Part shown: positions 6,048 through 43,083 of the stretch, piece after piece
How the letters are laid out: each line of letters starts with the position of its first letter
Numbering within the stretch: position 1 is the first letter of the stretch
Source: a virus
Taxonomy: Duplodnaviria > Heunggongvirae > Uroviricota > Caudoviricetes
Virus record (IMG/VR): IMGVR_UViG_2799113057_000001
Length of the DNA stretch: 44,564 nucleotides
Direction: 5' to 3' (one strand)
Notes under the pieces: model-generated
The model's input: only the letters and a program-made list of their open reading frames with translations
Databases searched by the model: none
What the model was told of the DNA's origin: nothing
Translations under genes and position numbers: made by a program

Positions 6048-6380
6048 GTTGACCTGCGTAAATGGTCAACAAGGCGTGCACTTCTCGGCCTACCAGCAGT
6101 TTTACGGAGATGCCTTGTAGATGGGGGGTGCCTCGGCACGGCTCTGGCTTCATAAAATTGCCCACACGGTAGGCCTATAAAGAAACCCCAGGTAGATATA
6201 TGTAATTAGTTTAGCTAATTATTTGTTTTACCCGTTACGTGAGGCAAAGCCGGCCACAACGCGTGTGTACATCTGCACGCCGAGAGGGTCTCCGAGGCAC
6301 CCCCCACTTACAAGGCATCAACGCAAACACCCAGGTAGGCCGACAAGTGCACGCCCTGTTGACAGAAACCGCAGGTCAAC
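6048..6380. repeat. 89-bp imperfect inverted repeat (6048-6136 / 6292-6380) around an AT-rich core
   Basis: Manual alignment 71/89 identical; core contains TAATTAG-N5-CTAATTA at 6203-6221. Confidence 0.9.
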
Positions 6381-6496
6381 AGGGAAAGTTACACACCACG
6401 ACGAACAGATTCACGCCAGTCGCCGAAAAGGTGCCTATCGGCGTGCCGTGCGTTTCAATCAGGCATCGTTGGAGGCATCGGTTAATCTCTTCGACC

Positions 6497-8623
6497 ATGG
6501 CCCTTGATCTGGAAGGCGTGCCACCTCAGTGGCGGGAGCGCATCGCCTCCTTGCCCGTTGAGCAGCAGGAGATCATGCTGCGAGGGATGGCTGCCGTGTT
6601 CAAAGCGCCGGCAGAGCCGAAGCTTCCTGAGCCTCCGAGCGTTGATGACGGCGATCTTGTCCGGCAGGCCCTGTATCCGCGCCGCGATCTGGCAGATGAA
6701 CCCCTCAGCGCGCGTGAGCAAGCCGAGTTCGATGCGCTGGTTGCGACACCGGGTGGCGAGTCCACCGCGGCGCCAGGTGTTTACAACCAGCCAGTCAAAA
6801 TGCTGACGGTGGGCGAGGTGGCGCAAGCGCTGGACATAAGCTCCACCGGCGTTCGCAGGCTGATCAAGTCTCGACGACTGCCCGCGTTCACAATGTTCAA
6901 GACGGTGCGCGTACGTTCCGATCTCGTCTGGGCACTGCGGAACCGGCCGGATCTAACCCCCGGACTGATAGGTGACGGTCCAGCGTACCGGCCCAATCAC
7001 TGCGCGATGGACCCCTTCAAAGGGGTGCCCGTTGAACAAGTCGCGGCTCAACTACGTGTTCATCCGCAGACACTGCGTCGTTGGGATCGCCACTACCGCA
7101 ATAACGAGATCAAAATGTGGTCACATGCCGGACGCGGTGAAGAAGCGGCTGTGATGTCAAAAACGCTTTCGTTGCACCATATTCCGTTTGAGAAGTCGCA
7201 GCTGAGGTTCGTCTCCCGCCTGGATATGCACGGTGCATCTCCTGAAGTGAAGCGCACCATCGCAGATGCCCTGCGGAGGATCGATCGCGCGCCCGTGCGC
7301 CCGGATCAGGTGCGGCGCAATCAGCGTCTGTCCGACGCGGCTACAGGTCAGCGTCTGTTCACATACCCCGAAGTCGCGGCCTTCTTGCATCTCACCCCGT
7401 CGGGTGCCCGCAAAGCGATCATGAGTGCCGGCATTCCTGTGCAGATCCTCGGGGGAGTGGCACGGGTGCGTTATGACGACATGGTCCACCTGATGCTCAC
7501 GCGCCACAACAAAGCGCTGCGCAAGAACCAGCCGCGGATGCCAGCGGTCAAACCCGACATCCCGCAACTGATCCCAATCGCGGAGGCGGCGAATCGGATG
7601 GGGGTAACCGTACGCACCGTGCGACGCTGGATCGCGGCCAAGAAGATCGTCGGGGTGATTCGCGATGAGGCCCTGTGGATCCGTGTCGCCGACCTCCAGA
7701 CTCATGGTGAACGTGACGAGCTATCGACAAGGCGCGATCGCCGGCGAGCCCAGGCAGCTGAGACCGTGGCCCGTGGCGCCACACTTACTGGTGGACACAT
7801 CGCCTCGTTCCTGCACTGGTTGCGATACACCTCTCCGGAGGTCGATCTGCACGACGCCCTGCACACCAGGAGCAGCGCAGCGGAGCTGGGAGGCTGCAGA
7901 CCCGTCGTAATCGAGAACCTGGTGCGCGAAGGGCTTATCCCAGCGCAGCGTTACGGACGCGAGCTGCGTATCCGGACCATGGACCTGTATGCCGCCGCAG
8001 TGTTCTCAGCGAAAGTCGCTCGAATGTGTCCCAAGCTCAAACCGAAGGACGTCCGGGAGCGGCATAGCGTGGTAGGCGAATACCTGAGTTTCGAGCAAGC
8101 CGCGGCGCGCCTGAAGCGACCGGTTTCGGAGGTCCGCCGGCTGGTGGCCGACAAGGTGTTGTTGACGGTGCGGTTCGGGCAAGTTCATCGCCTGCACGTG
8201 AGTGAGATTGAAGGCCCTGGACTGGTGCGCTTCAAGAAGATCGCCGAGCCGTACCCGCCGTTGAAGTACCATCGCTCGTTCAGCCAGATGACCGTCAACG
8301 AAGCCGCCGATGAACTGGGCCTGAGCGAACGTACAGTGCTGCGCTGGGTGCGTTCCGGCGCGCTGCTGGGTGCGTACGCCTCGCGAAAGAAGTGGCGGTG
8401 GAACTCCTATGGTGTCCCGGTCAAGGTCGATGTCCCGACCAACCGTGGCGGCGCCTTGCTGTCCGCGCGCACGGTCATCGCGGCCCGCCGTTTGCGTCAG
8501 GTGCGTGGCTTGCAGCCGCGCGATCTGATCGAGGTGACCAGAGGTCAGCTGTCAGCTGGGAATTATCCGGAGCTCAAGCCGTGGCAGGAGTTCATGTTGG
8601 TGGACGATTTGAGCGTTGCATAG
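6497..8623 (+). CDS. multi-domain HTH_17 (Xis/MerR-like) DNA-binding protein, about 7 HTH units
   Basis: Units such as MLTVGEVAQALDIS, LIPIAEAANRMGVTVRTVRRWI, MTVNEAADELGLSERTVLRWVRSG; start set at ATG 6497 because the upstream in-frame extension lies in the inverted repeat. Confidence 0.85.
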   Translation: MALDLEGVPPQWRERIASLPVEQQEIMLRGMAAVFKAPAEPKLPEPPSVDDGDLVRQALYPRRDLADEPLSAREQAEFDALVATPGGESTAAPGVYNQPVKMLTVGEVAQALDISSTGVRRLIKSRRLPAFTMFKTVRVRSDLVWALRNRPDLTPGLIGDGPAYRPNHCAMDPFKGVPVEQVAAQLRVHPQTLRRWDRHYRNNEIKMWSHAGRGEEAAVMSKTLSLHHIPFEKSQLRFVSRLDMHGASPEVKRTIADALRRIDRAPVRPDQVRRNQRLSDAATGQRLFTYPEVAAFLHLTPSGARKAIMSAGIPVQILGGVARVRYDDMVHLMLTRHNKALRKNQPRMPAVKPDIPQLIPIAEAANRMGVTVRTVRRWIAAKKIVGVIRDEALWIRVADLQTHGERDELSTRRDRRRAQAAETVARGATLTGGHIASFLHWLRYTSPEVDLHDALHTRSSAAELGGCRPVVIENLVREGLIPAQRYGRELRIRTMDLYAAAVFSAKVARMCPKLKPKDVRERHSVVGEYLSFEQAAARLKRPVSEVRRLVADKVLLTVRFGQVHRLHVSEIEGPGLVRFKKIAEPYPPLKYHRSFSQMTVNEAADELGLSERTVLRWVRSGALLGAYASRKKWRWNSYGVPVKVDVPTNRGGALLSARTVIAARRLRQVRGLQPRDLIEVTRGQLSAGNYPELKPWQEFMLVDDLSVA

Positions 8624-10821: not shown

Positions 10822-11649
10822 TTGTCACGTCCCCACCTGACCGTTATCACCCATCAACGCTGGCGTGCTGACGATCTCCGCCCATACGCCGATGTGCGCC
10901 TGGATCACGGTCTGGACGCTGCGGCGGCCGGTGACGTCGACGTCGCGCTGTGGTGTCCGGGAGCGTGGGCTGCCGCTGCCATCGCCCGCCACCCTCATCT
11001 GCTTCTGTCGTCCGCCGGCCCGGCGTGGCTTGACCACGTTTATCAGCTGTTGACGGGACGTGACATCCGGACCAGCACCGCGGCGGACCTGATCAGGGAA
11101 GCAAGCGGGGAGCGCACGGACCCTGTCTTCGCCAAGCTGCCCGAGACCAAGCACGACAGTTTCAGCGCGCGTACGCGCGAAGTCGGCGAGCTGCTCGCAG
11201 CGTTGTACCGACTACCGCCAGATGAGCCGGTTCAACTCCAGACCCCGGCGCACTTCGACTACGAGGTCCGCTGCTGGCTTCTGGGCGGACAGGTGGTCGC
11301 GCGTGCCGCTTACTTCCCCAACGTGCCGCGCGAGCAGTGGCCGGCATTGGATGATCCGGGTCGTTCAGCCGAGGCCGCAGCGTGGCTGGCACAGCTCGTC
11401 CCGCACTACCTGTCGGTACCGCCTGCGGTCGTTGTTGATGTCGGCTGGTGCGTTGACCCCGCGGTCGGTCCAGCTGGTTGGCGGGTCGTCGAAGCCAACG
11501 CGCCGTGGTCTGCCGACTGGTACACCCCGGACGACATGGCTGCTGTCGTGGAAACGATCGTCGCTAGTCAACGTGACGTGCCCGCCAAGTGGGGTTGGCA
11601 GCCGAGCCCGCTCCTGAAGCGCCTGTCGGTGGGACTGATCGCTCGGTAA
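10822..11649 (+). CDS. ATP-grasp domain protein (DUF4343/R2K-like)
   Basis: VFAK, EVRCW, VVVDVGW, WRVVEANAPWSADWY motifs. Confidence 0.75.
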   Translation: MSRPHLTVITHQRWRADDLRPYADVRLDHGLDAAAAGDVDVALWCPGAWAAAAIARHPHLLLSSAGPAWLDHVYQLLTGRDIRTSTAADLIREASGERTDPVFAKLPETKHDSFSARTREVGELLAALYRLPPDEPVQLQTPAHFDYEVRCWLLGGQVVARAAYFPNVPREQWPALDDPGRSAEAAAWLAQLVPHYLSVPPAVVVDVGWCVDPAVGPAGWRVVEANAPWSADWYTPDDMAAVVETIVASQRDVPAKWGWQPSPLLKRLSVGLIAR

Positions 11650-11767
11650 TTCGGCGTGTCGCCTACTGCCGGGCGACAGCGCCATCGTCCCGTGGCACCG
11701 TCGGCCCATGCGACTTTCCCTGGCACCCTACCACCATGAATGGCCTCAGCCGGTGGATTCCAACCGC

Positions 11768-11803
11768 TTGTCAGACCCTACCGCTATTCTCTAAAATAGA
11801 GAA
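11768..11803 (+). promoter_or_regulatory. promoter TTGTCA-N18-TAAAAT overlapped by palindrome TTCTCTA-AAA-TAGAGAA
   Basis: Directly upstream of the AGGAG RBS of rIIA; the 21-mer 11783-11803 recurs identically at 17652-17672. Confidence 0.7.
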
Positions 11804-11824
11804 TACAAACGACAGGAGAATGAC

Positions 11825-13888
11825 ATGCGGCTATCGGCTCCGGCTTCGACACTGATCAGCGTTGGCGATAGTGCCGATCTACCCACCATGACCAGCCGGG
11901 TCGACCCAGAGGGCGCGCGACGCATGATGGAAATGCTGGTCAATCTGTACGCCGACCGCCGACTCGCTGTAGTGCGTGAGTATGTGTCGAACGCAGTGGA
12001 CGCCAGTCGTGTGGCGGGTTCTGCCGAACCAGTGCGCGTGACTACGCCGACACTGGTTGATCCTCACCTGACGGTGACCGACAGCGGTACCGGGATGTCC
12101 ACCGATGAAGTCGAAGCCACCTTCCTGGCTTTCGCTGCCTCTACCAAACGGCATAGCAATGACCTGATCGGTGGGCTCGGGGTCGGTGCGAAATCCGCAT
12201 GGGCGCTGACGGAGTCGTTCTTGGTGGACACCGTCAAGGGCGGAAAGCGCACGCTTGTGCGCGCTGCCCGTGACCTGTCCCACCAGGTTCTCGCGGCTGG
12301 CGTGGACAGCGATTCCCCGGACGGAACCTGCATCACTGTGCCGGTGGAAGTGGAAGGACAAGTTCAGGAATGGGCGAGTGTGGTGCAGCAGGTTGCCTCC
12401 GCACACGCGGCGGGAGCCGTCCTCGTGGACGGCAAGAAGGTGCCCAGTCTTGAGGGAGGTCCGAGCTGGATCGGTCCTGTCTCTTGCCGGCAGATCGGTG
12501 ACAGCAAAGGTGCCGTGGTGGTTCGCAGCGGCGGCACGTTGTTCGCCTCGGTGCCCGAGGTCACCAGACGTGTCCTTGAATCTACAAAACTGATCTCGTG
12601 CGTGATTGAGCTTCCTGTGGGGTCGTTCGATCACACTCCCAGCCGAGAGAATGTGGTCGCGACAGCTCGCACGCTCGCCGCTGTGGACACTGCCCTGGCT
12701 GTATACCAATCAGCCTATGAGGCACTGGAAAAGCGTCTCAATGAGCTGGCGGAAAAGGACATCGCTGCTGCGGTGACTCTGCGCGCTCAGACTCTAGGGA
12801 AGGTCGCTAAGCCCGAGCACCTTCCGATCAAGTTCAGTGTGCAGGTACCCGCTGGCATTGGCGCCTGGAAGCTAGTGTCCAGCCAATCTGGGCGTGCTCG
12901 ATGGGACCGCGTCGGCGGTCGCTGCGAGGCCGACTCTTTCAGCGCGGCGCGCGGCTGTGAAGTCATGGGCGACACCGTGGTTGTCACCGAGGTTCCAGCC
13001 GGTCGCGTGTTGCGGGGATTTGCAAGGTTCCTGGAAGACGTACAGCCGGGCGCTCGGCGGGTCATTCCAGTGCCGAAAGGCCAAGGAGCCGTAGAACTGC
13101 CGATTATCGACGCCGAAAAGCGCACGGTCTCCCAGACTTGGTCAGTCGGCGCGGCAACCGAAGGTGTCTCGCACTACACCTTCACGGAGTGGAACGAAGA
13201 AATAGCGAAGACCAAGACGGAGCGAGTGGCCTCAAATGCCTATCAGTGTGCGTTGATCGGTTGCGACGGTGCGAATCCCGAGGCCATTGACATGACCGCG
13301 GCCGAGATCGAGGCATTGGGGCTACCGGTCTGGTACGTCCATGGAGATCGGCCCCGGCATCTCGAAAGCGGACCCGCGTCGCTGGGGGTCTACTTGGGAA
13401 AGCGTCAGACCGGGCCACTGATCGCCGCCGTGTCGGAGGCAATGACCCGCGAGAAATGGATGGATCGGCGTTTTCGCGCCGAGACCTCCGGGTGGACACA
13501 CGAGCAGCTTCTGGCCGTTGCTCTTGACGTTCTAGTGGCACACGCAGACGAGTCACAGTTTTTCGGTGTGGTCCCCAGGGCGCTGGAATTGATGCCAGCG
13601 GGTCGGACGACGCCCGAAATTCTCACACGCATCAACGCATTGGTCAGCGACATGCGGCAGACCACCGCTGTTCAGCGAGCCGTCATGCTCTCGGTCTGGG
13701 GGAGCGCTTCGGCAGGAGCGTTGCGCGCCGAACTCGGTGAACTACGCCGCGATCTGATGCGCGCCTACCCGCTGCTTGCCCATTTTCAGAGCTACTACGG
13801 ACGCCGCGAACCTGGACCGGAATACGCCGAGTACATAGCACACACCCCGCCCCGGCTCCCCGAGAAGGCCGAAGCAGCAGCAGCGTAG
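11825..13888 (+). CDS. rIIA: RIIA-like protein (GHKL/HATPase N-terminus)
   Basis: LYADRRLAVVREYVSNAVDA, VTDSGTGMS, STKRHSNDLIGGLGVGAKS; followed by an rIIB-like gene. Confidence 0.8.
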   Translation: MRLSAPASTLISVGDSADLPTMTSRVDPEGARRMMEMLVNLYADRRLAVVREYVSNAVDASRVAGSAEPVRVTTPTLVDPHLTVTDSGTGMSTDEVEATFLAFAASTKRHSNDLIGGLGVGAKSAWALTESFLVDTVKGGKRTLVRAARDLSHQVLAAGVDSDSPDGTCITVPVEVEGQVQEWASVVQQVASAHAAGAVLVDGKKVPSLEGGPSWIGPVSCRQIGDSKGAVVVRSGGTLFASVPEVTRRVLESTKLISCVIELPVGSFDHTPSRENVVATARTLAAVDTALAVYQSAYEALEKRLNELAEKDIAAAVTLRAQTLGKVAKPEHLPIKFSVQVPAGIGAWKLVSSQSGRARWDRVGGRCEADSFSAARGCEVMGDTVVVTEVPAGRVLRGFARFLEDVQPGARRVIPVPKGQGAVELPIIDAEKRTVSQTWSVGAATEGVSHYTFTEWNEEIAKTKTERVASNAYQCALIGCDGANPEAIDMTAAEIEALGLPVWYVHGDRPRHLESGPASLGVYLGKRQTGPLIAAVSEAMTREKWMDRRFRAETSGWTHEQLLAVALDVLVAHADESQFFGVVPRALELMPAGRTTPEILTRINALVSDMRQTTAVQRAVMLSVWGSASAGALRAELGELRRDLMRAYPLLAHFQSYYGRREPGPEYAEYIAHTPPRLPEKAEAAAA

Positions 13889-13926
13889 CGGCACGAAAAC
13901 CACACCAATAGAACAGGAACCAACCC

Positions 13927-15005
<1,079 letters not shown>

Positions 15006-15009
<4 letters not shown>

Positions 15010-27917: not shown

Positions 27918-28835
27918 CTACTGATCAGCCGCAGTCCAGTACTCAGGCAAGCGGCCGAAATCCGGATTTGTCAACGCCAGTCGGGCGGACAACTTATACG
28001 AGAGGTCGTCGGGCCACGATTCAATTTGGCTTGAGTACCAACTGCGCCAATCGATATCGAGCCCGCCCGCTGCAAGCCCTGCAAGATAGGAAGCCGTCAG
28101 TCTCGTTCTGTCCGCGACGTACATCATCTCGTAGTTGGTGCGGTTGCTGTCGCGCCTAACATCCATTGGCGCAATCTCTTCCGTTATTTCTTCGACGAGT
28201 CTGCCTTCGCGGGCGAATATGGCTACCAGTCGCTCTCCGTCAGTGATCTGATCGAGGAAGTCTCGAATGGAATTGATGTGGTTCTCGCTGGCTATGGTCC
28301 GAGCGGCCACATACCAGCTCTCCAGTGCCAGCCGCCACTGAGCCTGGAACGGTTCCCAAGCGGCAACGGGGAGACTCTGGATATCTGCGACGGCAAGGGC
28401 ATCTACTTCGACGAGTGTCGACGAGCTCCAAGACTCCTCGGTTATGGGGACTAGTTCGTCTCGCCACGCGATAGGGAGCGATCCTTCGCGGGCCCGCTTG
28501 AGGATCCGATCAAGGTACCGAGTCTTCGCCGCGGTGTAGTAATGGCCTCGCAGCCCGCCTCGAAGATCTGTTGGCCTGATGTTGAAAGGGTCTGATCTGG
28601 GCGTCGATGCAGCGTGGATCGAGCCGGGCGCATGGCCAGCAGCGGCCAGCGCCTCAGCTTCGGAACGACCCAGTGCAGCCGCCAGTCGCTTCACGGCTTT
28701 CGCGGAGGGCACCGTTGCCCCTGACTTCCATCTTGAGACTTGGGATGGGGCAACACCTGCCATCTCGGCTAGTTGGTTCTGTGGAGTGTCGCCTGCCACC
28801 TGCTGCAAGTAATTCACCCATGAAGTCACTGTCAC
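27918..28835 (-). CDS. XRE-family HTH regulator fused to an uncharacterised C-terminal domain
   Basis: QNQLAEMAGVAPSQVSRWKSG HTH; C-terminal domain paralogous to 32132-32809; start set at GTG 28835. Confidence 0.8.
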   Translation of the reverse strand: MTVTSWVNYLQQVAGDTPQNQLAEMAGVAPSQVSRWKSGATVPSAKAVKRLAAALGRSEAEALAAAGHAPGSIHAASTPRSDPFNIRPTDLRGGLRGHYYTAAKTRYLDRILKRAREGSLPIAWRDELVPITEESWSSSTLVEVDALAVADIQSLPVAAWEPFQAQWRLALESWYVAARTIASENHINSIRDFLDQITDGERLVAIFAREGRLVEEITEEIAPMDVRRDSNRTNYEMMYVADRTRLTASYLAGLAAGGLDIDWRSWYSSQIESWPDDLSYKLSARLALTNPDFGRLPEYWTAADQ

Positions 28836-33727: not shown

Positions 33728-33792
33728 GGTAGCTGGCGGACAAGAACCCCAAAGCGTGTGATGCCCGCGGAGACGGAGGGACTCGAACCCTC
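33728..33792 (-). repeat. direct repeat copy 2 (overlaps the intact tRNA-Ser 3' end)
   Basis: See 32829-32894. Confidence 0.85.
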
Positions 33793-36211: not shown

Positions 36212-36346
36212 ATGGCGAGCCGGGGGACAGGCCCAGCCCGGGCCGCTGTCTACGCGCCGTCTGTCCCCGGACACGCAGGCGGAGCCACCCGCACCCGGCA
36301 TCTCAGCCGAGCGGTTCCCGTGCGGTTGTGAGCCGGTTGGGTTGCG

Positions 36347-36434
36347 CGGAAGGTAGAGGTGTCGAGCCCCCGAGGACTCCCGTCCCCGCATGCCGGTTTT
36401 CAAGACCGGGTGCGCCGCCGGGCGCGTACCTTCC
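36347..36434 (-). tRNA. tRNA-Ser(TGA), 8-bp acceptor / 4-bp T-stem
   Basis: GGAAGGTA/TACCTTCC, GGGG-CTCGACA-CCTC, long V arm, G73. Confidence 0.8.
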
Positions 36435-39799: not shown

Positions 39800-39800
39800 T

Positions 39801-39888
39801 TGGTGTCGATGACAGGAGTCGAACCTGCACACCCTGTAATGGGCGCCAGCTCCTCAAGCTGGTGCGTCTGCCGTTCCGCCACACCGAC
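39801..39888 (-). tRNA. tRNA-Leu(GAG)
   Basis: Long V arm; CCA. Confidence 0.9.
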
Positions 39889-39894
39889 ATTGCG

Positions 39895-39967
39895 TGGTCC
39901 CGGCCGGAATCGAACCGACCTCTCTTGGGCTTCAACCGAGCGCTTGAACCAGTTCAGCTTCGGGACC
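39895..39967 (-). tRNA. tRNA-Phe(GAA)
   Basis: Loop TTGAAGC; one stem mismatch. Confidence 0.8.
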
Positions 39968-39975
39968 ATCCCGGG

Positions 39976-40046
39976 TGAAAGGGGCGGGAGTTGAACCCGC
40001 GTGCGACTGGCGTCCCAGCTGGCAGACCGTCAATGCCAACCCTCTC
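39976..40046 (-). ncRNA. tRNA-like RNA with a 4-nt loop in place of the anticodon loop
   Basis: Acceptor GAGAGGG/CCCTTTC, D stem GGCA/TGCC, arm GCTGG-GACG-CCAGT, T arm GCGGG-TTCAACT-CCCGC. Confidence 0.75.
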
Positions 40047-40098
40047 GAAGCGCCTATCGGCCACCGCGTTGGCGGTGCTTACGAATGGGCGCTCAACG

Positions 40099-40173
40099 TA
40101 GTCCGTACCGGATTCGAACCGGTGATCTTCTGGCTGAGAACCAGGTGTCTTGGGCCAACTAGACGAACGGACC
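40099..40173 (-). tRNA. tRNA-Glu(CTC)
   Basis: Cloverleaf. Confidence 0.9.
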
Positions 40174-40217
40174 AGGAAACTCGTCTCTCCGAGCCGTCAC
40201 GGGTCTGTTCCCCGTCG

Positions 40218-40685
40218 TCAGATGTGCGCTGGTCGGAACGGTTCACGGATCAGCTTCATCCCCGCTTCCTCCGGCGTGCGGTCTGCCTTGCGGCCGTTGC
40301 ACGGCTCGCACGCGCCTACCTGGTTCGTCCACGATGACGGCGCACCGCCGCGCGAACGCGGGAACACGTGATCGATCGTGGTGGCCTTGGCGCCGCAGCC
40401 GAAGTACTGGCACAGGTAGTTGTCTCGGCGCAGAATCTCTGCACGCGAGGCCAACTCCGGATCGCGGCGGTATGGGACAGGGGCGTACCGAGTCAGCAAC
40501 AGCGACTTGGGCACCTCCACCTCGGCGCTCGGCGAGCGGACTATGCGTGGGGGCACGTGGGCCTCCAGCGCGTATGCCACATCACGCAGAAGCATGCCGA
40601 CCGCGTCTTGCCAGCGTACGGTGTCGAGAAATGAATAGTCGGCGTTGAACACCCGCACGGAAGGCGCGGGCACGGTCATCGTCAT
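40218..40685 (-). CDS. HNH endonuclease (McrA/COG1403-like)
   Basis: ILRRDNYLCQY...TIDHVFPRSRGG...WTNQVGACEPCNGRK; AAGGAGG RBS. Confidence 0.9.
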   Translation of the reverse strand: MTMTVPAPSVRVFNADYSFLDTVRWQDAVGMLLRDVAYALEAHVPPRIVRSPSAEVEVPKSLLLTRYAPVPYRRDPELASRAEILRRDNYLCQYFGCGAKATTIDHVFPRSRGGAPSSWTNQVGACEPCNGRKADRTPEEAGMKLIREPFRPAHI

Positions 40686-40756
40686 GGCGCCGCGCCTCCT
40701 TTCCGTGTTCTGGGCGGGCCGGGATGGCGCGAATGCGCCCTATTGCAACGGGGTAG

Positions 40757-40829
40757 TGGAAGCTGCGGGGCTCGAACCCGCCACCTCCTGCTTGCAAGGC
40801 AGGCGCTCTACCAGATGAGCTAAGCCCCC
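40757..40829 (-). tRNA. tRNA-Ala(TGC)
   Basis: G3:U70. Confidence 0.9.
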
Positions 40830-41067: not shown

Positions 41068-41362
41068 GTATTTGGGACTGAGATTAGGTCCCAAAGCAAC
41101 GGTCCTCTCGTCGGATTATGGTTTCTCGACTTATCCACCAGGTTTCCCTAGGTAGCCGTCACGCCGGGCTGCTTGCGGCAGCCACTCGTCATGCCACGGT
41201 CTACTCCGCGAAGTCTCGATACAGACAAGGGCAGCTAACCCCTGAACCGCTCTGACACCTCACGGACTTCCGATCACCTTGCGAGTTCACGGTTGCCTCG
41301 GTTCCCTTTGCAGGGCCGAGGATTACGGCGCTTTCGAGCCGTGGCAGGGAAAGTCTTTCGCT
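41068..41362 (-). ncRNA. large GNRA-rich structured RNA candidate (segment A)
   Basis: At least five GNRA-capped hairpins and a terminal TTTGGGAC/GTCCCAAA stem; no credible ORF. Confidence 0.65.
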
Positions 41363-41439
41363 TGGAATAAACACGCCGGACTTGAACCGGCGACCTACCG
41401 TTCCAGAAACGATTGCTCTGCCAATTGAGCTAGTGCTTG
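41363..41439 (-). tRNA. atypical tRNA-Gln(CTG)
   Basis: Loop TTCTGGA; C1-A72 mismatch; Asn-like D arm. Confidence 0.7.
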
Positions 41440-41440
41440 T

Positions 41441-41850
41441 TGACTGAGGATGTGCTTTCCCGCGAAGTTCCGTGACCTTTTGAGCCACAGAATGCTTCAC
41501 ACCCTCGCGCTTGGCCGCCAAGCCGCTGCGCTCTCGTCCGTGCACCGATGCGCCCACCGGATTCCGAAGTCATGGGAACCGCCCTCGCCTGGCGAGCTCG
41601 GACTGGTGTTCCCTCGCACCCCGCTGGCGATCCTCGTTCACGTGACGGTGTCGGCGCTGCGTAGCGCCGACGCGAAGGTGAGCACTCGCCGTCCCTTCTG
41701 CCGTCGAACTCGAACCGCTGTGGCACCCGGTTGCCCAGGTACTCCTTGCGGAAGCCGTGCATGGTGTGCCGCATCGCCGTAGAGATGTGGTGGCGGGGTG
41801 TCACACCCACCTTTCGCGGAGTCGCCTCCGGTTGTCGAGCCATGCCTCGT
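41441..41850 (-). ncRNA. large structured RNA candidate (segment B)
   Basis: UUCC-GCAA-GGAG, CCUGG-GCAA-CCGGG, 9-bp GUCGGCGCU/AGCGCCGAC, GCUUGG/CCAAGC hairpins. Confidence 0.55.
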
Positions 41851-41930: not shown

Positions 41931-42001
41931 TGGTTGTGGGCCGGATTCGAACCGGGACCGCTCGGGGTCCGCCCGCCGCTCTGCCACTGAGCTACCACTA
42001 C
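41931..42001 (-). ncRNA. tRNA-like RNA with defective anticodon arm
   Basis: Canonical D arm and TTCGAAT T loop, ends ACCA; arm CGGG-CGGAC-CCCG, no U33. Confidence 0.65.
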
Positions 42002-43016: not shown

Positions 43017-43083
43017 AGCCAACGCAGGGAATCGAACCCCGTGGCGAAGGGACCGTCCTCTGTCCCTACCCACCGTCGTGGGC
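43017..43083 (-). ncRNA. tRNA-like RNA lacking a D stem, with an 8-nt anticodon-position loop
   Basis: Acceptor GCCCACG/CGTTGGC, T arm CGGGG-TTCGATT-CCCTG, stem AGGGAC/GTCCCT. Confidence 0.55.

Follow-up and report, generated by a model that had tools for sequence, protein, structure and literature searches.

A 130-nt cassette in a mycobacterial tRNA array

The window, that is, the whole stretch of 44,564 nt analysed here (IMG/VR record IMGVR_UViG_2799113057_000001), has 36 tRNA genes, all in the same orientation on the minus strand, between positions 33767 and 43721, as called by ARAGORN. The spacer between tRNA-Glu(ctc) and tRNA-Phe in this array measures 130 nt and consists, in minus-strand order, of a 51-nt hairpin, a 71-nt tRNA-like element and an 8-nt trailer. 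The features at and around this spacer are the following:

41075-41507, minus strand: GOLLD RNA, a full-length Rfam match (188.4 bits, E = 3e-52)
40218..40685, minus strand: HNH endonuclease gene (Pfam HNH_5 3.6e-8, HNH 1.7e-6)
40098..40173, minus strand: tRNA-Glu(ctc), the upstream neighbour (ARAGORN; Rfam tRNA 55.9 bits)
40047..40097, minus strand: leader hairpin of 51 nt, recognized by its fold; part of the 130-nt allele and conserved together with the element
39976..40046, minus strand: tRNA-like element of 71 nt (el1), recognized by its sequence, its fold, a sub-threshold Rfam tmRNA match and the scores of the covariance model R1
39968..39975, minus strand: trailer of 8 nt, CCCGGGAU, between A73 of the element and tRNA-Phe
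39894..39967, minus strand: tRNA-Phe(gaa), the downstream neighbour (ARAGORN; Rfam tRNA 51 bits)

A preceding sequence-only reading had placed the element just downstream of the HNH gene; tRNA-Glu(ctc) at 40098-40173 and the hairpin at 40047-40097 in fact intervene. The hairpin folds at -24.4 kcal/mol with z = -3.40, and 0 of 200 shuffles fold as well. CCA is not encoded after the element, where the window has CCC and one variant array (L231) has CAC, and no promoter-like or terminator-like sites were found in 39800-40800.

Mycobacterial tRNA array units are marked by an HNH gene and a GOLLD RNA (PMC5966550, PMC9569102, PMC12803027). The HNH gene of the window falls into a 90%-identity cluster of Mycobacteroides abscessus/immunogenum HNH endonucleases with 39 members on hundreds of contigs; on the strength of this cluster and of the GOLLD RNA that is also present, the element is assigned to such units. 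As the marker of the array family, the HNH gene also served as the anchor for fetching related arrays. The GOLLD RNA itself has a tRNA-Gln(ctg) embedded within it, at 41363-41440. The array papers searched mention neither tRNA-like nor pseudo-tRNA elements.

The exact HNH protein occurs on nine contigs, including the 5.18-Mb complete chromosome CP062133.1 at NCBI and Logan assemblies, and the candidate region of 328 nt is 100% identical in the NCBI chromosome and in two Logan assemblies from different runs.

Fold and acceptor-stem identity of the element

Taken as the reverse complement of 39976-40046, the 5' half of the element reads GAGAGGG-UU-GGCA-UUGACGGUC-UGCC-A-GCUGG-GACG, and the remainder, 3' of GACG, reads CCAGU-CGCAC-GCGGG-UUCAACU-CCCGC-CCCUUUC-A. 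Its minimum-free-energy fold is a cloverleaf (-31.2 kcal/mol). Specifically, the acceptor stem of 7 bp (GAGAGGG/CCCUUUC) is made up of G1:C72, A2:U71, G3:U70, A4:U69 and G5-7:C66-68; the D stem of 4-5 bp (GGCA/UGCC) closes the D loop UUGACGGUC; a short arm of 5 bp (GCUGG/CCAGU) is capped by the 4-nt loop GACG (40014-40011); and a 5-nt variable loop (CGCAC) leads into the T arm, which has a 5-bp stem (GCGGG/CCCGC) and the canonical loop UUCAACU (39995-39989). All 21 of the 21 stem pairs are standard, two of them being G.U, which bears out the earlier description of a cloverleaf with paired stems, a canonical T loop, A73 and a GACG loop. Thermodynamics by itself lends only modest support (z = -2.06, with 8 of 200 shuffles folding equally well), and the centroid structure also contains an alternative register for the short arm, so that the tRNA nature of the element is argued from the T-arm motif and the architecture.

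The core tertiary positions of the element are U14, U15 and C21, the last of these being the final base of the D loop, where the canonical bases are A14, R15 and A21; among the array tRNAs, A14 is present in 34/36 and A21 in 28/36. The characterization of the element as a well-formed tRNA body consequently holds for its stems and T loop and fails for its D loop: the body is well paired, yet non-canonical at the D loop. Since the element deviates from a canonical tRNA in its loop and at positions 14, 15 and 21 while every stem pair stays intact, the deviations fit selection on shape and not on decoding. The short-arm loop has 4 nt without U33-NNN-R37, and is the same in all five array variants that carry the element; the element is therefore unable to decode, as had been proposed from the sequence. 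A molecule that lacks an anticodon loop is, however, a poor decoy for anticodon nucleases, one of the roles that had been suggested for it.

AlaRS reads G3:U70 together with A73 and disregards the anticodon. The element carries both, with G3 at 40044, U70 at 39979 and the discriminator A73 at 39976, while only one of the 36 array tRNAs, tRNA-Ala, has G3:U70; judged by these 36 tRNAs, the chance of meeting G3:U70 and A73 by coincidence is estimated at a few percent. The pairs A2:U71 and A4:U69 of the element are not the usual ones of tRNA-Ala or tmRNA, and a comparison with paralogous tRNAs and with tRNA-Ala(ggc/tgc) as possible sources revealed no special similarity.

ARAGORN does not call the element as a tRNA, nor does it call a tmRNA or tag peptide there. 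In the Rfam tRNA clan, the best match of the element is tmRNA (RF00023), which aligns end to end with its middle deleted, the gap between the two tRNA-like halves of the element being only 20 nt. The score of 21.5-30.1 bits exceeds that of the tRNA model RF00005 and lies below the gathering score of 47. Descent from tmRNA was nevertheless rejected as a conclusion from this match, which is non-specific, because ordinary tRNAs in relatives reach 18-34 bits with the same model. Compared with the tmRNA consensus GGaUUCGACgg, the 5' region GG-CAUUGACGG agrees at 8/11 positions, and the element has a D stem; it is without the mRNA-like domain of tmRNA, possessing neither a tag reading frame nor pseudoknots. 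An Rfam alignment of the mascRNA type is weak (15.5 bits).

Distribution and rate of change among related arrays

The 130-nt allele that contains the element was recovered from five distinct array variants (L190, which is the window, and L231, L237, L238 and L239), which sit behind three HNH alleles (P0037, P0033 and P0035). Covariance model R1 gives 106 bits on the element itself and 99-106 bits in the four further arrays. In other arrays the same HNH alleles accompany a 136-nt form of the spacer, from which it follows that the two spacer alleles recombine among backgrounds. The 136-nt spacer, which has no significant fold (z = 0.25), is found in most Mycobacteroides arrays and in Mycobacterium sp. 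D16Q14, and the three commonest HNH variants have it, and lack the element, at all 24 of their loci. It begins (L193-L216, L083) with what resembles the remains of a T arm, CGGG-UUUGAUU-CCCG; after this comes GGCCGAU, which also occurs in the hairpin of the window. The two alleles may go back to a common, distant tRNA-derived ancestor, their alignment reaching z = 2.5 only (3/500 shuffles), a marginal value on which homology was not accepted.

Other arrays differ more strongly at this site. In compact arrays (TY66, M. alvei and the P0002 type), the Glu and Phe tRNAs are 1-14 nt apart, in pCBMA213_1 and M. aubagnense a 187-aa ORF occupies the Glu(ctc)-Phe junction, and in Tsukamurella three ORFs do so. 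An intact tRNA orthologue with a normal 7-nt loop was not found at the Glu-Phe site of any relative array examined. The possibility that orthologs have normal loops, which would have made the 4-nt loop a recent deletion, is thereby set aside, as the site in relatives contains either this 4-nt loop (five variants) or no tRNA-like sequence.

Searches further afield yielded no homologue. DNA-pattern searches found none in IMG/VR and a single chance match in JGI metagenomes; BLAST of the element against PLSDB gave no match and against INPHARED only 24-nt matches of the T arm to enterobacterial ssrA attachment sites (23/24 bases); and a DNA search of 401 Mycobacteriaceae species genomes returned only chance matches of 20-30 nt. 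R1, run on 151 Mycobacteriaceae genomes, on more distant arrays and on loci from IMG/VR (80) and plasmids, recognized only ordinary tRNAs, at no more than 37 bits; a 53-nt match in one genome (G007) lies within a coding region and was dropped. The element belongs to a polymorphic 130-nt cassette that only a minority of tRNA-array islands in the Mycobacteroides abscessus complex carry, and it is dispensable, given that most related arrays are without it.

Two further tRNA-like sequences lie in the same array. The one at 41932-42001 (minus strand) has a canonical D arm, a 5-nt loop (CGGAC) and mismatched stems; it scores 35.4 bits with the Rfam tRNA model, is not called by ARAGORN and is absent from the common Mycobacteroides arrays. 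Its counterpart in L238 has perfect T and anticodon stems around the same 5-nt loop, so that by sequence the window copy looks further decayed. The other, at 43018-43083 (minus strand), is a relic that has an acceptor stem, a T arm and an 8-nt loop but lacks the D stem, and it sits in a 152-nt spacer common to many Mycobacteroides arrays; its loop contains GGAC, GGAA or GGGC depending on the array, and in L218, an array of the P0002 type, the T arm has been deleted. A GGAC loop motif shared by the three odd tRNA-like elements was considered and discarded, since it varies in the third of them across arrays, and a comparison of the three found that they are not paralogues of each other.

Variable columns were counted across the five carrier arrays (L190, L231, L237, L238 and L239), a small sample, with these results:

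Element: 2/71
Hairpin: 2/51, both at unpaired positions
tRNA-Glu: 2/76
tRNA-Phe: 1/74
tRNA-Leu(gag): 3/88
HNH-Glu spacer: 8/44
Trailer: 2/8
HNH gene: 68/468, of which 57 at the 156 third codon positions

By Fisher's test, the element differs from the adjacent HNH-Glu spacer (p = 0.007) and from the HNH third positions (p = 3e-9), and not from the neighbouring tRNAs (p = 1.0). The contention that the element is not in simple decay gains support from these counts (2/71 as against 8/44 and 57/156). The 136-nt allele, followed in nine other arrays of similar HNH diversity (17%), has 22/136 variable columns, compared with 4/122 for hairpin and element together (p = 7e-4). Between L190 and L237, the HNH gene differs at 24% of its third positions and the HNH-Glu spacer at 9%, while 6.5-17 differences expected in the element under neutrality contrast with 0/71 observed (Poisson P <= 0.0016). 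Of the two substitutions in the element, one turns a C:G pair of the T stem into U:G and keeps the pairing, and the other turns a G:C pair in the D stem of L238 into G.A and breaks it. With 3 distinct rows and 0 double changes, covariation is uninformative; the search of other arrays that had been proposed, for compensatory stem changes around a retained 4-nt loop, returned the loop in five variants and none of the changes.

Taken together, the element is a real, reproducible and lineage-polymorphic anticodon-less cloverleaf that is as quiet as the neighbouring tRNAs in five arrays. This low diversity is accounted for either by constraint or by a recently spread recombination module. The second is conceivable because the arrays are recombination mosaics: which Glu-Phe spacer allele an array has does not depend on its HNH allele, and the columns of tRNA-Arg(acg) differ by 44%, compared with 3% for those of the neighbouring tRNA-Leu(gag), which marks strong mosaics. 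Constraint, in turn, is favoured by the short spacers adjoining the Glu-Phe module, which do vary; the sample is small, however, and two of the changes are confined to a single lineage, L231.

A young module would suit a reading of the element as a neutral relic, in which a tRNA-derived sequence has lost its anticodon loop and rides passively in the spacer, its conserved look stemming from recent spread. This is a serious possibility and the main rival of the reading preferred below, than which it is only a little less probable. The element is missing from most related arrays, and Glu(ctc) immediately next to Phe seems to be the ancestral arrangement; none of the relatives examined, on the other hand, has an intact tRNA orthologue at the site. 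The mosaic arrays and the incongruence of spacer and HNH alleles agree with recent spread; against it, the flanks have changed (8/44 columns between HNH and Glu, 2/8 in the trailer and a replaced Phe-Leu spacer) while the element (2/71) and the hairpin (2/51) have stayed as quiet as tRNAs. Decay is suggested by the loss of the D-loop invariants, by the one disruptive D-stem substitution with no covariation and by the presence of two more anticodon-defective relics in the array, of which that at 41932-42001 shows stepwise decay from the better stems of L238; it is hard to reconcile with 21 intact pairs despite at least four departures from canonical loop positions. G3:U70 with A73 would, moreover, be a coincidence, estimated at a few percent.

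A cis-acting role is improbable. In such a model, RNase P and RNase Z would enter the transcript at the hairpin and tRNA-like fold, or these would insulate the folding, and either would help Glu and Phe to mature; the RNA set free in the process would itself be functionless. Processing at tRNA-like punctuation marks is well established, mitochondrial transcripts and mascRNA being examples, and both the joint conservation of hairpin and fold as one cassette and the lack of separate transcription signals are in keeping with this model. Many arrays, however, mature both tRNAs with spacers of 1-14 nt or with the unstructured 136-nt spacer and need no such aid, and G3:U70 with A73 is left unexplained.

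A putative non-decoding tRNA mimic and its known counterparts

The reading tentatively preferred here, at somewhat less than an even chance, is that the element is a matured, probably alanine-chargeable, non-decoding tRNA mimic. It is favoured by the 21/21 pairs, by G3:U70 and A73, by the 4-nt loop in five arrays and by the low variability; it is disfavoured by the absence of compensatory changes, one of the two substitutions breaking a D-stem pair, by the two clearly degenerate tRNA-like relics in the same array, and by the D stem, which is unlike typical tRNA-like domains of tmRNAs. The steps that follow are modelled on established tRNA biology. As no promoter or terminator lies nearby, the element should be co-transcribed with the array. 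RNase P needs only an acceptor/T-arm helix and would cut at G1; its cleavage at the 5' end of tRNA-Phe would free the 8-nt trailer for trimming. The CCA-adding enzyme would then complete the 3' end, and AlaRS would probably charge the product with alanine via G3:U70 and A73. [quoted passage not shown]

Because no codon pairing is possible, the mimic would act by occupying a partner that recognizes the acceptor/T-arm half of tRNA. The most concrete candidate, on the precedent of phage DS6A described below, is SmpB and the trans-translation system; alternatives include a toxin or defence enzyme directed at the acceptor end and a non-ribosomal user of Ala-tRNA. Within the tentative mimic reading, about half of the weight falls on the SmpB/tmRNA route and about half on other partners. 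The 27 window ORFs scanned against Pfam gave no match to SmpB or synthetase families. A stronger form of this idea is doubtful: a mobile island of the M. abscessus complex would encode an alanine-charged, anticodon-less cloverleaf that acts in trans, and it would do so by capturing SmpB and blocking host ribosome rescue, by serving as a sink for a toxin or defence enzyme, or by passing alanine to a non-ribosomal acceptor.

The closest parallel is the ssrA of mycobacteriophage DS6A, which consists of a tRNA-like domain (TLD) only (tmID 11587); this ssrA and a similar molecule tested in E. coli are reported to inhibit tmRNA, perhaps by titrating SmpB (Hudson et al. 2014, PMC4131195; Mao et al. 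2009 as cited there and in PMC11915505). The DS6A molecule was located at JN698994 28478-28560, where the tmRNA model gives 34.7-43.2 bits. It and the element are both short RNAs of mycobacterial mobile elements (83 nt in DS6A, 71 nt here) with a 7-bp acceptor stem that contains G3:U70, with A73 and with a canonical T arm preceded by GCAC; both lack an anticodon, a tag reading frame and a fully encoded CCA; and both match the Rfam tmRNA model end to end, below threshold. In architecture, the element thus has an acceptor, a D-loop analogue and a T arm, alanine identity and no coding part, as the DS6A type does. The differences are as clear: the DS6A molecule starts with GGGG, has a tmRNA-like D loop (UGGUGGUCGAC) and scores 34.7-43.2 as opposed to 21.5-30.1 bits, whereas the element has a D stem of 4-5 bp and a tetraloop-capped arm of 5 bp that complete a full cloverleaf. 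The former lies between protein genes and the latter inside a tRNA array; R1 gives 26.9 bits on DS6A, within the 20-37 bits of ordinary tRNAs, and no specific sequence homology was found; and inhibition of tmRNA has been reported for the DS6A type only. Judged by sequence, the element is an analogue of the DS6A molecule, several of the features that define the tmRNA family failing in it. In the GenBank record of DS6A (L226), the stretch 28478-28560 is without annotation as a TLD-only ssrA, and 49300-50502 encodes an RtcB-like RNA ligase.

These comparisons make it very improbable that the element is a genuine, much reduced tmRNA, homologous to phage tmRNAs and still rescuing stalled ribosomes. 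The end-to-end tmRNA match is the best in the Rfam clan, but its 21.5-30.1 bits stay below the gathering score of 47 and are of the order that ordinary tRNAs reach (18-34). The T-arm region agrees with enterobacterial ssrA at 23/24 bases, and G3:U70 and A73 are present; the 5' end, on the other hand, is GAGA and not GGGG, a D stem is present, the tag reading frame and pseudoknots are absent, specific similarity to the DS6A element is lacking, and no SmpB-family match was found by Pfam among the 27 window ORFs scanned. Reduction as such has precedents, since tmRNAs without a CDS exist in phage DS6A, in jakobid mitochondria and in some plastids (PMC11915505). The organellar ones (Jacob et al. 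2004; tmRNA database update, PMC11915505) are of the alanine type, measure about 65 nt, have lost the mRNA-like part and are thought to act still with SmpB; they differ from the element in that they demonstrably derive from full tmRNAs and are the only ssrA of their genome, whereas the element is an accessory extra. The host of the element has presumably retained an ssrA of its own; in a related Mycobacterium genome (G001), a tmRNA scores 140 bits. No tmRNA for comparison was found in phage ScoobyDoobyDoo. As for an assembly or sequencing error or a chance fold, the modest folding z-score is all that speaks for it, and three identical independent assemblies, five distinct variants and a canonical T arm inside a co-oriented tRNA array make its probability negligible.

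Two further groups of tRNA-shaped sequences invite comparison with the candidate mimic. Like tRNA pseudogenes and relics of arrays, the element lies in an array beside an HNH gene and a GOLLD RNA, in the company of two relics with defective anticodon loops; it differs from them in that its stems are all intact, in that it is as invariant across five arrays as real tRNAs are, and in having a synthetase identity set for which no anticodon is needed. mascRNA, the vtRNAs of gammaherpesviruses and the stable RNAs C and D of phage T4 are likewise tRNA-shaped with a shortened or odd anticodon arm, are released by RNase P and RNase Z and in some cases are given CCA. They belong to unrelated lineages and are not known to be aminoacylated, and their resemblance to the element is one of shape only.

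tRNA arrays of mycobacterial mobile elements are currently read as sets of spare tRNAs that counter tRNA-targeting defences. If a conserved, non-decoding member matures and is charged, these arrays would carry RNA effectors as well. The element would then stand beside the tRNA-like domain of tmRNA as a second class of chargeable tRNA that does not decode and has been shaped independently, passed between tRNA arrays as a 130-nt cassette, and it would be, after phage DS6A, a second case of a minimal alanine-type tRNA mimic occurring naturally in mycobacterial mobile elements. Whether mobile elements inhibit trans-translation, as has been proposed, could thereby be put to a direct test, and the natural 130-nt and 136-nt alleles provide a ready-made comparison. 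Should the element be a relic instead, it still documents a cassette-like turnover of spacers in these arrays.

Outside the cassette, the window contains further features. Pfam matches of its ORFs include HNH, HTH regulators, GNAT, an R2K ATP-grasp domain, RuvC and NlpC/P60, and PHROGs matches include rIIA/rIIB-like and exonuclease families. Specifically, at 10822-15009 (plus strand) an R2K-clade ATP-grasp gene precedes genes similar to rIIA and rIIB (PHROGs 1e-48 and 2e-38); the content is of the phage type, in a region that is a chromosomal island in at least one assembly. An ORF of 794 aa at 6239-8623 (plus strand) has many repeated helix-turn-helix units (HTH_17/MerR-type). Finally, the sequence at 36346-36434 (minus strand), which ARAGORN calls as tRNA-Ser(tga), has tRNA-Sec as its best Rfam match (43.5 bits, threshold 47), a score that points to an unusual acceptor/T-stem geometry.
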